From NCBI GenBank assembly GCA_964422025.1, contig CAYQYZ010000008.1, positions 1 through 56,542 of the forward strand: a DNA stretch of 56,542 bases, read 5' to 3'. Below the pieces are notes generated by a model. The model searched no databases and had not been told where the DNA came from. It worked only from the letters and a program-made list of their open reading frames with translations. Made by a program: the position numbers and the translations under genes. Positions 16,111 through 19,786 of this stretch are shown in pieces. This DNA comes from an uncultured Gammaproteobacteria bacterium. Its GTDB lineage: Bacteria; Patescibacteriota; Microgenomatia; UBA1406; HO2-37-13b. Position 1 is the stretch's first letter, and the number at the start of each line of letters is the position of its first letter.

Positions 16111-17793
16111 ATGCCACGAATGAAACTTGCTATTAAAAGAACCCTTAAAGAGCCTGTAAGCGTTGATGAAATCGTCTCTTTATTACTCAAAGATAGAGGC
16201 CTTGAGAAAGATATTGAGTTTTTAAATCCTCCGAACCCGAGCACAATCGATTTTTCATCATTTTTTACACCAGCATATTACAAAAAACATCTCTTATCCA
16301 CTCTCTCTACACTCAAGCGTATTAAGGAGAATAGCGAAACTATCGTTGTATATTGTGATTATGACGCAGACGGAATTACCGGAGGAGCAGTTTTGTGGGA
16401 AACACTTCATTTGCTAGGATTCAAAGTATTTCCCCATGTTCCCGATAGAAAAAGTGAAGGGTATGGATTTTCAAAAGTTGGAATTGATGCGGTAAAGGAA
16501 AAATATAATCCTGCACTTATAATTTCAGTTGATCATGGAATCATGGGGCACAAACAAATTTCATACGCAAAGTCATTGGGAATAGACGTTATTATTACCG
16601 ATCATCATAGTAAAGCAGAAACTGATCCGACCGATACACTAGCGATTTTTCATACCAGCAAATTATCGGGGAGCGGTGTTGCTTATTTTTTTGCAAAAAC
16701 AGTTTTTGAAGAATTGAAAAACTCTCTTGACGCCAAAACTTCTTCAATTCTTACTAAACACTTTTCAAACGACTACCAGGCGCTTGCTGCTATTGGAACT
16801 GTTGCGGATCTCGTCCCACTTACCGGTGCAAGTAGAGCATTAGTAAAGCACGGGCTGAAAGCACTTACTAAAAGTAGTCGTCCGGGTTTAAAACATTTAT
16901 TTATTGATGCGGAAATTGTAGGTCGAAACATGAGTCCGTACGAAGTTGGTTTTATTATCGCTCCACGTATTAATGCATTCGGTCGACTTACCCATGCAAT
17001 CGATGCACTCCGTATGCTTTGTACAGTTTCGGAGAGCCGAGCAAGCGAACTTGCAAAAAAATCAGGAACGGTAAATAAAGATAGGCAAGCATTGGTGGAA
17101 ATTGGAATAGAACAAGCGCTTAAACAAGTAAATGAAACAGACAAAATAATTATCGTTTCCTCACCCGATTGGAACGAAGGAATTATTGGCTTGATTGCTT
17201 CAAAATTGGTTGAAAAATATTATCGCCCGGCAATTGTTCTGGCAATTTCCGATGGACACGCAAAAGCATCGGTCCGCTCTATCACGGGAGTTGACATTAC
17301 GGCATTTCTGAGAATACATGAAAAACTACTTATAAGCATTGGCGGACATGCAATGGCCGCCGGACTTTCGATCGAAGTAAAGAACTTAGAAAAATTCAAA
17401 AAGGCAATTTTAACTGACGCAGAAAAAAACATTACTGATGAACAACTAATTCCAACGACAAATGTTGATATGCAAATTCCATTTGAACTTAACACACTTG
17501 AACTTGCACATGCGCTCGAAAAACTCTCTCCTTTTGGAGTAGGTAACCCATACCCGGTATTCTCAACTGAAGGTCAGATTGCTGATAAAAAATTGCTCGG
17601 AAAAAATAGCGATCATTTAAAGTTAATGATTAAAAGCGGCGACATCTTACCAATTGAATGTATGTTTTTTAAACAAGGAGCACTTCATGATGAATTAAAA
17701 ATCGGGGAGAAAAGAGAATTTGTCTATAAACTTGAGATTAATCGGTGGAATGGGCGGGAGAAAGTGAGTATGATGGGGAAAACGATTATTTAA
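16111..17793 (+). CDS. recJ: Single-stranded DNA-specific exonuclease RecJ
   Basis: DYDADG, VDHG, TDHH, GTVADLVPL, PRINAFGRL, GGHAMAAG, PFGVGNP. Confidence 0.96.
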   Translation: MPRMKLAIKRTLKEPVSVDEIVSLLLKDRGLEKDIEFLNPPNPSTIDFSSFFTPAYYKKHLLSTLSTLKRIKENSETIVVYCDYDADGITGGAVLWETLHLLGFKVFPHVPDRKSEGYGFSKVGIDAVKEKYNPALIISVDHGIMGHKQISYAKSLGIDVIITDHHSKAETDPTDTLAIFHTSKLSGSGVAYFFAKTVFEELKNSLDAKTSSILTKHFSNDYQALAAIGTVADLVPLTGASRALVKHGLKALTKSSRPGLKHLFIDAEIVGRNMSPYEVGFIIAPRINAFGRLTHAIDALRMLCTVSESRASELAKKSGTVNKDRQALVEIGIEQALKQVNETDKIIIVSSPDWNEGIIGLIASKLVEKYYRPAIVLAISDGHAKASVRSITGVDITAFLRIHEKLLISIGGHAMAAGLSIEVKNLEKFKKAILTDAEKNITDEQLIPTTNVDMQIPFELNTLELAHALEKLSPFGVGNPYPVFSTEGQIADKKLLGKNSDHLKLMIKSGDILPIECMFFKQGALHDELKIGEKREFVYKLEINRWNGREKVSMMGKTII

Positions 17794-17797
17794 TAAG

Positions 17798-18319
17798 TTA
17801 TTTTTTACCGCCCCTTCTTTTGCTCTTTATTCCATTACGATAACCCTCCTGATATTTCGTGATTTTTTCGTCAACAATTGCTCTCATGTGAGCAGCAGCC
17901 GCATTTTTTCTACCGTACTTTCCACGTCCATACACCGGTTGTGTATCTGATGATGAAGTGCCTTCCAATGCTGCGCGTGCAAGTCGCTTTCTTTCTCGCT
18001 TACTCAATGTAACTTCTCCAGTCGTTTGAACTCCGGGTATAGCGCTATCATAGAGTGTTCCGTTTTCAGGAGAATCATATGTGTCGCCTGCTATTGCAGA
18101 TTCAGGCAAATCCATGCTGCTCTCTGTAACCACACTAATAGGCAGAGAGTTAGTTCCTTCCATACCTTCATTGCTAGTTCCTTCATCCAAGCCCAGATCT
18201 TTTTCATGAGAGCTCCTGATGTAATCTTGATTTTTTCGGAGCACAGCAGGGCCATCGAGCAATGAGCCATTTTGTCCTGCGTCAGATGGTGGTGTATAAT
18301 CTGAAATAATTTCTGCCAT
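17798..18319 (-). CDS. Hypothetical, probably disordered protein (acidic N-part, basic C-part)
   Basis: 173 aa open frame filling the recJ-aspS gap; rich in S/G/E/D, ends KSKRRGGKK; no recognisable family. Confidence 0.55.
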   Translation of the reverse strand: MAEIISDYTPPSDAGQNGSLLDGPAVLRKNQDYIRSSHEKDLGLDEGTSNEGMEGTNSLPISVVTESSMDLPESAIAGDTYDSPENGTLYDSAIPGVQTTGEVTLSKRERKRLARAALEGTSSSDTQPVYGRGKYGRKNAAAAHMRAIVDEKITKYQEGYRNGIKSKRRGGKK

Positions 18320-18358
18320 AAAAAAACCACATCAACCCTCCTTGCAAGGTTGGTGTGG
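18320..18358 (-). terminator. Intrinsic-terminator-like hairpin plus U7 immediately before the ATG of the 173-aa ORF
   Basis: Minus strand CCACACCAACC-loop-GGTTGATGTGG-TTTTTTT-ATG; 11-bp stem with one C-A mismatch. Confidence 0.6.
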
Positions 18359-18370
18359 GTATGAGAACAT
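18332..18370 (-). CDS. Putative 12-aa leader peptide MFSYPHQPCKEG
   Basis: ATG preceded by GAGG; the TGA stop lies inside the 3' arm of the terminator stem. Short enough to occur by chance. Confidence 0.3.
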   Translation of the reverse strand: MFSYPHQPCKEG

Positions 18371-18385
18371 ATATCCTCGTATCAT

Positions 18386-18414
18386 ATTGTATCATTTACG
18401 CTTGCTATTGTCAA
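18386..18414 (-). promoter_or_regulatory. Near-consensus sigma70 promoter
   Basis: Minus strand TTGACA, 17 nt spacer, TACAAT with extended TG. Confidence 0.75.
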
Positions 18415-18442
18415 CGAAGCCCCCAGCAGCTATAATGGGGGC

Positions 18443-19786
18443 ATGAAAAAACTTTCCATTTCTTCACTTGCTGACAAGGTTGGTCAAGACGTTATACTTT
18501 ACGGCTGGGCATATAGAATCAGAAATCACAAAAAGGTTGTTTTTATTGATCTTCGCGATGTTTCAGGCGATGTGCAAATTGTTGGTGGACCTGAATTGGC
18601 TACGATTAATCCTGAAGATGTAGTTTGTATTAAGGGCTTGGTAAAAGAGCGACCCGCGCACATGGTGAATGAGAAAAGCGCAACAGGTACTATTGAAGTA
18701 GAATGCAAAGAATTCGAAGTTCTTTCCAAAGCACAAACACTTCCTTTTGATTTTGCAAAAGATCAACTCGACGTTACACTTCCCATCCTTCTCGATTATC
18801 GATCGCTCACGCTCCGTCATCCGCATGTTCGATCTATCTTTCAAGTTCAAGAGCAAGTTATGGCAGGTTTTAGAAAAGCCGCCCAAGAACTTGGATGTAC
18901 CGAAGTTTTTGTTCCAACTATTTCTTTCTCATCTACCGAAGGGGGAGCGGAAGTATTCAAAGTAAAATACTACGATCATGAGGCGTTCTTAATTCAAAGT
19001 CCACAGCTGTATAAGCAAATTATGGTGCCCGTTTTTGAGCGCGTGTATTTAGTATCTCATGCATATCGTGCTGAGCCTTCAGTAACGACTCGTCACTTGT
19101 CGGAAGCGACACAGCTTGATTGTGAACTAGGTTTCGTAAACTTTGAAGAATTGCTTGATGCGGTTGAAATGGTAGGACAAACAATATTAAGAAATGTTAC
19201 CGAAAAACATCCAGAAATTCTAATAGAGTTTGGTGTTGAACCGCCAGAAGTAAATGGAAAAGTTCCGCGACTTACATTACGAGAAGCACAACAGATTATT
19301 TTCGAACGAACGGGTCGAGATAATCGGAAAGAACAAGATTTGGAACCGGAAGATGAGAAGGAAATTTGCGTATGGGCTCTTGAAACGCATAAATCCGACC
19401 TCGTTACGATTACCCATTTTCCAACGGCAAAACGCGCATTTTATTCAAAGCCCGATCCCAAAGACCCTGAATATTCATTAAGCTATGACTTACTTTTCCG
19501 AGGAATTGAAATTCTAAGTGGAAGCCAAAGAGTTGATGACTATGATGAACTTGTCTTGGTAATAAAAAGCAGAGGGATGAATCCGGAAGACTTCTATCTG
19601 TATTTACAGGCTTTCAAATACGGCATGCCCCCACATGGTGGTTTTTCATTTGGACTTGAGCGAATGACAATGAAACTGTTAAATTTAGGAAATGTCCGAG
19701 AAGCTTCACTCTTCCCTCGCGACATGGAACGAATTGACGTACGATTAAATGCCACAAAAGATGAAAAAAAAGAAATTAGCTCCTAG
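18443..19786 (+). CDS. aspS: Aspartate--tRNA ligase, short archaeal-type (probably non-discriminating)
   Basis: FIDLRD, QSPQLYKQ, YRAEPS.T.RHLSE, EILSGSQR, FKYGMPPHGGFSFGLER; 447 aa, lacks the bacterial GAD insertion. Confidence 0.92.
   Translation: MKKLSISSLADKVGQDVILYGWAYRIRNHKKVVFIDLRDVSGDVQIVGGPELATINPEDVVCIKGLVKERPAHMVNEKSATGTIEVECKEFEVLSKAQTLPFDFAKDQLDVTLPILLDYRSLTLRHPHVRSIFQVQEQVMAGFRKAAQELGCTEVFVPTISFSSTEGGAEVFKVKYYDHEAFLIQSPQLYKQIMVPVFERVYLVSHAYRAEPSVTTRHLSEATQLDCELGFVNFEELLDAVEMVGQTILRNVTEKHPEILIEFGVEPPEVNGKVPRLTLREAQQIIFERTGRDNRKEQDLEPEDEKEICVWALETHKSDLVTITHFPTAKRAFYSKPDPKDPEYSLSYDLLFRGIEILSGSQRVDDYDELVLVIKSRGMNPEDFYLYLQAFKYGMPPHGGFSFGLERMTMKLLNLGNVREASLFPRDMERIDVRLNATKDEKKEISS

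Follow-up and report, generated by a model that had tools for sequence, protein, structure and literature searches.

A promoter-proximal, terminator-like leader before a lineage-specific gene inserted between recJ and aspS in an uncultured Roizmanbacteria genome

Introduction

In Escherichia coli, the terminator-containing leader of greA yields terminated transcripts, GraL (PMC2836576, PMC6829880), and a translating ribosome suppresses a terminator located at or just past the stop codon (PMC4824070). In E. coli pyrBI, the intrinsic terminator directly before the structural gene is overlapped by a short, promoter-proximal ORF; a ribosome translating this leader through the terminator prevents termination, and no antiterminator helix is needed. 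The attenuators ilvL/ivbL, pheL and trpL combine a short ORF that contains a run of identical codons with hairpins and a terminator, and have a mutually exclusive 2:3 antiterminator.

CPR/Patescibacteria are uncultured, and to our knowledge almost nothing is known of their gene regulation. The locus described here belongs to an uncultured, ultra-small CPR bacterium of the Roizmanbacteria, whose genome comprises 1.04 Mb in 18 contigs. Contig 8 is the window, i.e., the whole stretch of 56,542 nucleotides that was analysed, and positions without a contig label refer to it.

The recJ/aspS slot and its gene

The slot is bounded on the left by recJ (16111–17793, plus strand), which converges on a 173-aa gene (17798–18319, minus strand) across a gap of 4 nt, and on the right by the gene of the non-discriminating aspartate-tRNA(Asn) ligase, aspS (18443–19786, plus strand). 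recJ and aspS are contiguous in four other genomes, one of the same genus (G002) and three of other genera (G007, G009, and G017), and the aspS -10 box lies there inside the last recJ codons. The opposite-strand gene and its leader are therefore an insertion within the window's genus.

The stretches 17780–17800 and 18425–18442 bear on how the insertion arose. The end of recJ, ATTATTTAATAAG, resembles a decayed form of the aspS -10/stop arrangement of the insertion-free genomes (in G002, for example, GGTATAATGAGG), and the promoter may have been duplicated by the insertion, as at the greA/lysS site. At the latter, a strain-specific insertion of ~2.2 kb with ORFs of 354 and 338 aa (C1:21290–23515, G000) separates greA from a class-I lysS-like gene. 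On either side of this insertion stands an imperfect copy, ~20 nt long, of the leaderless lysS promoter plus ATGTT. The left copy now starts a 25-codon leaderless mini-ORF that passes through a hairpin and T6 and ends in ATG-TAA; directly downstream follow a second hairpin, T7 and ATGGCA.

The 173-aa protein (family A) was assessed by codon usage, homologues, alignment, dN/dS and an AlphaFold model. Disorder is predicted for the N-terminal 100 residues, which are acidic and variable. The 70 residues at the C-terminus are basic and conserved, with the motifs YGxGKYGxxNAxAA and KYxEGYRxGxKS, and are predicted to form two helices; the AlphaFold model of the protein is weak (pLDDT 58). The codon score of the ORF corresponds to the 62nd percentile of real-gene windows and greatly exceeds that of the other five frames. 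A word-indexed protein search with the protein returned the query itself only, and an exhaustive HMMER search found two homologues, of 136 aa (56% identity) and 130 aa, with E-values of 1e-31 and 6e-7, both in the same slot. The dN/dS of the family is 0.41 overall and 0.29 in the C-terminal half. Because of the gene-like codon score, the homologues and the dN/dS, the ORF is taken to be a real, fast-evolving gene. A sequence-only reading of the locus had called its product an orphan disordered protein; the gene and the acidic-then-basic layout stand, but with two homologues it is not a strict orphan, and its C-terminal half is predicted to be helical.

The gene in the slot is not the same in all relatives. 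In G001 and G003, an identical leader and ATGGCAGAA precede an unrelated ORF of 198 aa (L002:3000–3596, L003:743–1339), 95% identical between the two, with a dN/dS of ~0.45 that is based on very few changes. A relationship of the 198-aa ORF to the 173-aa gene, by divergence or after a frameshift, was also considered and dropped, as no protein or DNA similarity was found past ATGGCAGAA. Neither the 198-aa protein nor those of 173, 136, and 130 aa have a match in Pfam, PHROGs or NCBIfam.

Promoters of the slot

The leader promoter, read on the minus strand, has the -35 box TTGACA (18409–18414), invariant in all four relatives reaching that far, and the extended -10 box TGaTACAAT (18386–18394; TACAAT at 18391–18386 and TG at 18394–18393), with a 17-nt spacer. 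In a promoter scan it scores 11/12, the joint best match in 9 kb. The relatives have TACAAT or TATACT as -10 box, with the TG retained. Transcription of the leader would start at ~18380–18378. The adjacent stretch 18385–18379, directly 3' of the -10 box, differs between genomes, as expected near a start site.

On the opposite strand, the divergent aspS promoter TTGTCA-17-TATAAT (18408–18442, plus strand, with the hexamers at 18408–18436) ends 6 nt before the aspS ATG, which therefore implies a leaderless aspS mRNA. The two promoters stand back to back with a common -35 region (TTGTCAA/TTGACAA, 18408–18414 on both strands; the aspS -35 box occupies 18408–18413). Two polymerases probably cannot sit on both promoters simultaneously, so that initiation of the leader RNA and initiation of aspS may be in competition.

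Another promoter-like site, TTGTCC-17-TATAAT (10/12), is found on the plus strand at 18272–18300, inside the 5' end of the 173-aa gene and antisense to the leader. It may be a chance occurrence.

Anatomy of the leader RNA

The first 16 nt of the RNA form a weak 5'-terminal stem-loop, P1 (GAGGAU-AUAU-GUUCUC, 18363–18378, minus strand), with a fold energy of -3.4 to -4.9 kcal/mol. It holds GAGGA (18378–18374), paired with codons 1–3 of a mini-ORF, and the AUG of that ORF. The mini-ORF, a putative coding sequence, has 12 codons, MFSYPHQPCKEG, followed by TGA (18332–18370, minus strand; ATG at 18370, TGA at 18334–18332), and reads ATG TTC TCA TAC CCA CAC CAA CCT TGC AAG GAG GGT TGA (18370–18332). 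P1 is followed by the terminator helix CCACA·C·CAACCUU/AGGGUUG·A·UGUGG (18327–18358, minus strand), with 5 + 7 = 12 bp, the loop GCAAGG and a ΔG of -15.8 kcal/mol on its own, and by an invariant U7 tract (18320–18326, minus strand) that directly adjoins the start codon of the 173-aa gene. The fold of the 70-nt leader has -21.7 kcal/mol (z = -2.97). This is the anatomy of an intrinsic terminator: a GC-containing 12-bp stem-loop and then U7 without a gap.

Most of what the sequence-only reading had described here is found as described. The promoter TTGACA-17-TACAAT is present at 18414–18386 of the minus strand, as a near-consensus promoter (11/12) with an extended -10 box; GAGG and an ATG-initiated 12-codon leader ORF are in their places; the TGA stop (18334–18332) falls inside the 3' arm of the hairpin; and the U7 tract (18326–18320) is followed, with no spacer, by the ATG at 18319 of the 173-aa ORF. 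The hairpin itself, given as one of 11 bp, is present at 18358–18327, but as 12 bp with one C·A mismatch rather than 11 perfect pairs. P1 and the -35 box common with the aspS promoter are additions to that reading.

Folds of the leader, in the window as in the long-form relatives described below, contain P1 and the terminator helix, with or without an inner hairpin, and no competing antiterminator helix. A search of Rfam 15 at permissive thresholds with the window and two relatives gave best scores of 12–23 bits, against family thresholds of 33–175 bits.

The bulged, imperfect hairpin (..CCAAC/GTTGG..) had also raised the question of an integron attC-like site. The attC reading was dropped because the GTTRRRY match occurs in some copies only, and because the exchange boundary lies 3' of the start codon.

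Conservation and the longer form

The comparison covered the window, G001, G003 and two short Logan contigs (L015 and L016), i.e., five genomes or assemblies. The promoter, the leader, the hairpin, U7 and ATGGCAGAA are kept in the same recJ/aspS slot in all four relatives. Conservation of leader and hairpin, which the sequence-only reading had proposed as a check, thus extends to the five genomes or assemblies, with the pairing of the helix retained. The 18 nt CGAGGATATATGTTCTCA at the 5' end of the leader are invariant in all five sequences, and so are an ACCCA block, a CCAAC block, T7 and ATGGCAGAA.

The leader of the relatives is longer, ~98 nt. Its outer helix is the same and encloses an inner hairpin with a U-rich tail. 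The mini-ORF of the long form has 13 codons and ends in (I/F)-I-I-K-stop, including Ile-Ile-Ile-Lys with a run of AUU-AUU-AUU; its stop precedes the inner hairpin and lies ~45 nt before the 3' arm of the outer helix. The window mini-ORF shares its frame with the 13-codon mini-ORFs MFSTNPYQHIIIK, MFSANPSQHIIIK and MFSYPYQLNFIIK of the relatives. The window leader derives from the ~98-nt form by deletion, with loss of both the Ile codons and the inner hairpin.

The helices vary in a compensatory manner. In the outer helix, the window has C-G as the pair after CAAC, where G001, G003 and L016 have A-U and L015 has U-A; a second compensatory pair of the same helix is C-G in the window versus U-A elsewhere. 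The inner hairpin is CCCC/GGGG in L015 versus ACCUGU/ACAGGU in the others, with the pairing retained. As the leaders comprise no more than four distinct sequences, statistics on covariation are thin, with one pair credited. By its persistence in five genomes or assemblies and the maintenance of helix pairing via compensatory changes, the promoter-leader-hairpin-gene unit is judged clearly not to be a product of chance.

The leader is more constant than its surroundings. Between G001 and G003, identity is 100% in the leader RNA, 85.7% in the first 300 nt of aspS and 75.6% in the promoter spacer; across the genus, the first 300 nt of aspS are 80–87% identical. The leader RNAs of L016 and G001 are 98% identical, yet the downstream genes are unrelated. 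On these comparisons, the cargo of the slot was exchanged and the expression platform retained. Searches for further leader copies found none beyond the known slot, by blastn in the genome, by a 24-mer with three mismatches in 25 family genomes, or by a covariance model in 25 genomes, and two metagenome scans gave zero matches.

Translation starts and recurrence of the design in the host genome

Start regions were analysed at 735 well-defined starts of the host genome. TAnnnT at -12 to -7 is found at 33% of these starts versus 6.5% in the control, and SD-like 4-mers at 5.6% versus 7.1% in the control (inside genes). The sequence upstream of the 735 starts is A/U-rich with no G enrichment. The leaderless look that had been ascribed to the window is thereby supported genome-wide. 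The host 16S rRNA retains CCUCC, and the genome encodes an S1-type protein.

Neither ATG of the slot belongs to the leaderless class. A leaderless start was considered for the mini-ORF and for the 173-aa gene and was rejected: no -10 hexamer is present at -12 to -7 of either ATG. The -10 box of the leader promoter ends 15 nt before the ATG of the mini-ORF.

The fusion of a hairpin, a T-run and a start codon recurs. T-runs behind strong hairpins adjoin an ATG in 6 of 49 cases, compared with 61 of 2982 other T-runs (Fisher p = 6e-4), and the six abutting starts read ATGG each time. Clean elements of a hairpin and T6 number 42 in the host genome versus 33 in the reversed sequence. The other loci with a hairpin and T7 or T8 fused to ATGG are C1:21425, 283015, 288276, 20819 (greA) and 185879, with a near-abutting case at 188950, and each has a promoter-like site 47–130 nt upstream. 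The leader at C1:288276 opens with a leaderless mini-ORF containing six consecutive Phe codons, and its hairpin and U8 are fused to the next ATG; that at C1:21425 contains a 25-codon leaderless mini-ORF running through the first hairpin; the leaders of greA and C1:185879 have the same design and no mini-ORF.

The greA leaders of seven relatives likewise consist of a promoter, a hairpin and a T-run, the latter 0–37 nt before the ATG. Throughout the family (G000 C1:20760–20821; L018–L025) the greA leader has a promoter, a hairpin and T7–8. The T-run is fused to the ATG in the window's genus and lies 5–37 nt away in other genera. With the greA hairpin and T-run up to 37 nt from the ATG, the function of the hairpin and U-run is therefore separable from the start codon, and the arrangement matches the greA leader of E. 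coli with its terminator (PMC2836576).

Three further elements may be recorded. At C1:188950 (minus strand), CCCCGCAAAGGCGGGG and T7 are followed by ATG GTA TGA, whose TGA overlaps the ATG of a 484-aa ORF (ATGGTATGAAAAAC), i.e., a two-codon ORF coupled to the real start. C4:79008 (minus strand) and C5:16405 (plus strand) carry near-identical terminator-like elements, TATCCGTCAAAGAATCCACCT(C/T)CGGGTGGGTTTTTT, neither of which has an ORF in the 200 nt before it; one copy is situated 108 nt past tRNA-Asp. The two elements may represent a repeat, or else the 3' ends of RNA genes that have escaped annotation.

Attenuation as the preferred explanation

At this locus, a promoter-proximal intrinsic terminator probably attenuates a lineage-specific gene that was inserted between recJ and aspS on the opposite strand. 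This reading is favoured by the anatomy and fold of the leader, its conservation with compensatory changes, the coding status of the downstream ORF, the recurrence of the design in the genome (p = 6e-4) and the hairpin and T-run of the greA leaders. Against it stand the folds, in which no alternative antiterminator helix was found, and the count of clean elements of a hairpin and T6, which hardly exceeds that of the reversed sequence (42 versus 33). The attenuator-like unit of the sequence-only reading is upheld in so far as a conserved promoter, leader and terminator-like hairpin precede a real gene in a geometry that fits; control by the ribosome is possible. Termination at U7, read-through and any role of translation are deduced from the sequence.

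RNA polymerase would start at ~18380–18378, at the near-consensus extended -10 promoter whose -35 box is common with the leaderless aspS promoter. The nascent RNA would form the small 5' stem-loop and next the 12-bp helix with U7, and by default most transcripts would stop at U7 as an RNA of ~60 nt (~100 nt in the relatives). The 173-aa mRNA would then come from read-through polymerases only, with its AUG as the first base after the U tract, and this AUG would be used without a Shine-Dalgarno site, like those of nearly all host genes. The most specific candidate trigger for read-through would be a ribosome on the mini-ORF. The long, ancestral form is built like an Ile-type leader-peptide attenuator, with Ile-Ile-Ile-Lys-stop followed by an inner hairpin that resembles a pause site or terminator and by the outer terminator.

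A strict version of this attenuator, operated by the ribosome, is a tentative sub-case only, with clearly less than even confidence. It says that translation of the mini-ORF stops the terminator from forming, in the manner of pyrBI in the window and by Ile sensing in the long forms. Its geometry is suggestive: in each of the five sequences the mini-ORF includes the 5' arm of the helix, and in the window its stop falls within the 3' arm, where a ribosome would block hairpin formation. The ATG of the mini-ORF and GAGGA are invariant, two 3-nt indels leave the frame intact, and the mini-ORFs of the long forms close with (I/F)IIK-stop. The host has the leaderless six-Phe mini-ORF before hairpin, U8 and ATG at C1:288276, its 16S rRNA retains CCUCC, and ribosomes suppress nearby terminators in E. 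coli (PMC4824070).

Several features of the mini-ORF argue the other way. The use of SD sites is not enriched in the genome, and GAGG stands 4 nt from the ATG, an atypical spacing that is essentially unused in the host. In contrast to the Phe-type leader at C1:288276, the slot has a mini-ORF that is not leaderless and whose start is occluded by P1. It is not conserved as a peptide either: four of its four substitutions are non-synonymous and the third positions of ATG TTC TCA are invariant, which suggests a constraint on the RNA rather than on the peptide. An open frame of 12 codons has a probability of ~0.46 by chance. The window copy is without Ile codons, and its peptide MFSYPHQPCKEG has no run of codons for any sensed amino acid; greA and C1:185879 show the same leader design without a mini-ORF. 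A ribosome that stalled at the Ile codons of a long form would not obstruct the inner, terminator-like hairpin, which makes the logic ambiguous.

Independent RNA or start module

The invariant 5' end of the leader also bears on a second reading, in which the locus makes an independent, constitutive sRNA of ~60–100 nt that acts in trans or accumulates in the manner of GraL, the mini-ORF is incidental and the gene is expressed by leak-through. This reading is considered unlikely, though not negligible. A 5' stem-loop with its own terminator is a typical sRNA architecture; conservation of the leader exceeds that of the coding DNA on its flanks, whichever gene follows; the invariant 18-nt 5' block takes in third codon positions; and the greA leader with GraL is a precedent (PMC2836576). 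Several hairpin and T-run elements of the host follow no ORF, and terminated non-coding RNAs therefore probably exist in it. The RNA is, however, single-copy and confined to the recJ/aspS slot, and the U tract, ATGGCAGAA and the start of the gene form a single conserved block. As the same design stands before other genes with unrelated leader sequences, a role in cis is favoured over an sRNA. A duplex search with the conserved single-stranded part of the leader found no convincing trans target, the second-best 'target' being its own 3' arm.

The abutment of U tract and start codon may be explained in another way, namely that hairpin-U7/8-AUGG is chiefly a start module for the small number of leadered genes in a genome whose ribosomes would disregard SD sites, with the U tract as an unstructured ribosome landing site or as a cleavage site that gives rise to a leaderless mRNA. 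This is improbable. The U-run ends exactly at ATGG in at least six loci, the sequence upstream of starts is A/U-rich and G-poor genome-wide, one third of the genes look leaderless, an S1-type protein is encoded, and in two places U6/7-ATG opens an ORF of one or two codons beside the real start, all of which would suit a start module. Against this, other genera have the greA hairpin and T-run at 5–37 nt from the ATG, which shows that the two need not abut; a stem rich in GC with U7–8 is a canonical intrinsic terminator; and processing is without support.

The two functions might also be joined in one element of 25–40 nt, in which the hairpin terminates while the U tract-AUG recruits ribosomes or is cleaved, although this carries as little weight as the start module by itself. 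Such an element, if real, would set both transcription read-through and translation initiation, and would be portable because the same leader precedes two unrelated genes in sister genomes.

Terminator-start fusions in a leaderless-looking, SD-independent genome offer concrete elements for the question of transcription-translation coupling in CPR, and the same elements bear on how leadered CPR genes get translated. The leader also marks a small, fast-evolving protein family and a slot in which the gene body has been swapped behind a kept platform.

Comparison with known systems

The preferred reading, attenuation at a promoter-proximal terminator, can be set beside three described types. The window leader resembles E. 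coli pyrBI in its overall order, in which a promoter-proximal short ORF overlaps the terminator just before the gene with no need of an antiterminator helix, and in that the leader ORF reaches into the terminator hairpin (TGA 18334–18332 in the 3' arm); the latter is not the case in the long forms. It differs in its downstream gene, which encodes an uncharacterised small protein unrelated to pyrimidine synthesis. The UTP-sensitive pause, which couples polymerase and ribosome, belongs to pyrBI. The U tract of the leader is fused to the next start codon, and translation of the mini-ORF is putative in a host genome in which SD sites are not enriched.

With ilvL/ivbL, pheL and trpL, the long form shares a short ORF, here with Ile-Ile-Ile, that is followed by hairpins and a terminator. 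Unlike these attenuators, it has no mutually exclusive 2:3 antiterminator, and its terminator is a 1:4-type outer helix enclosing an inner hairpin. In addition, the gene behind the leader is not an amino-acid gene, the window copy lost the Ile run, and there is no Rfam match.

GraL of E. coli greA is similar in having a strong promoter and an intrinsic terminator within ~60 nt, such that short RNAs and mRNA would share a promoter, and the host's own greA has the hairpin-U7-ATG design. There is no sequence relation between the two, and at the recJ/aspS slot a conserved mini-ORF overlaps the terminator and the gene is that of a lineage-specific small protein. The leader unit is a genus-restricted example of a well-known regulatory principle.
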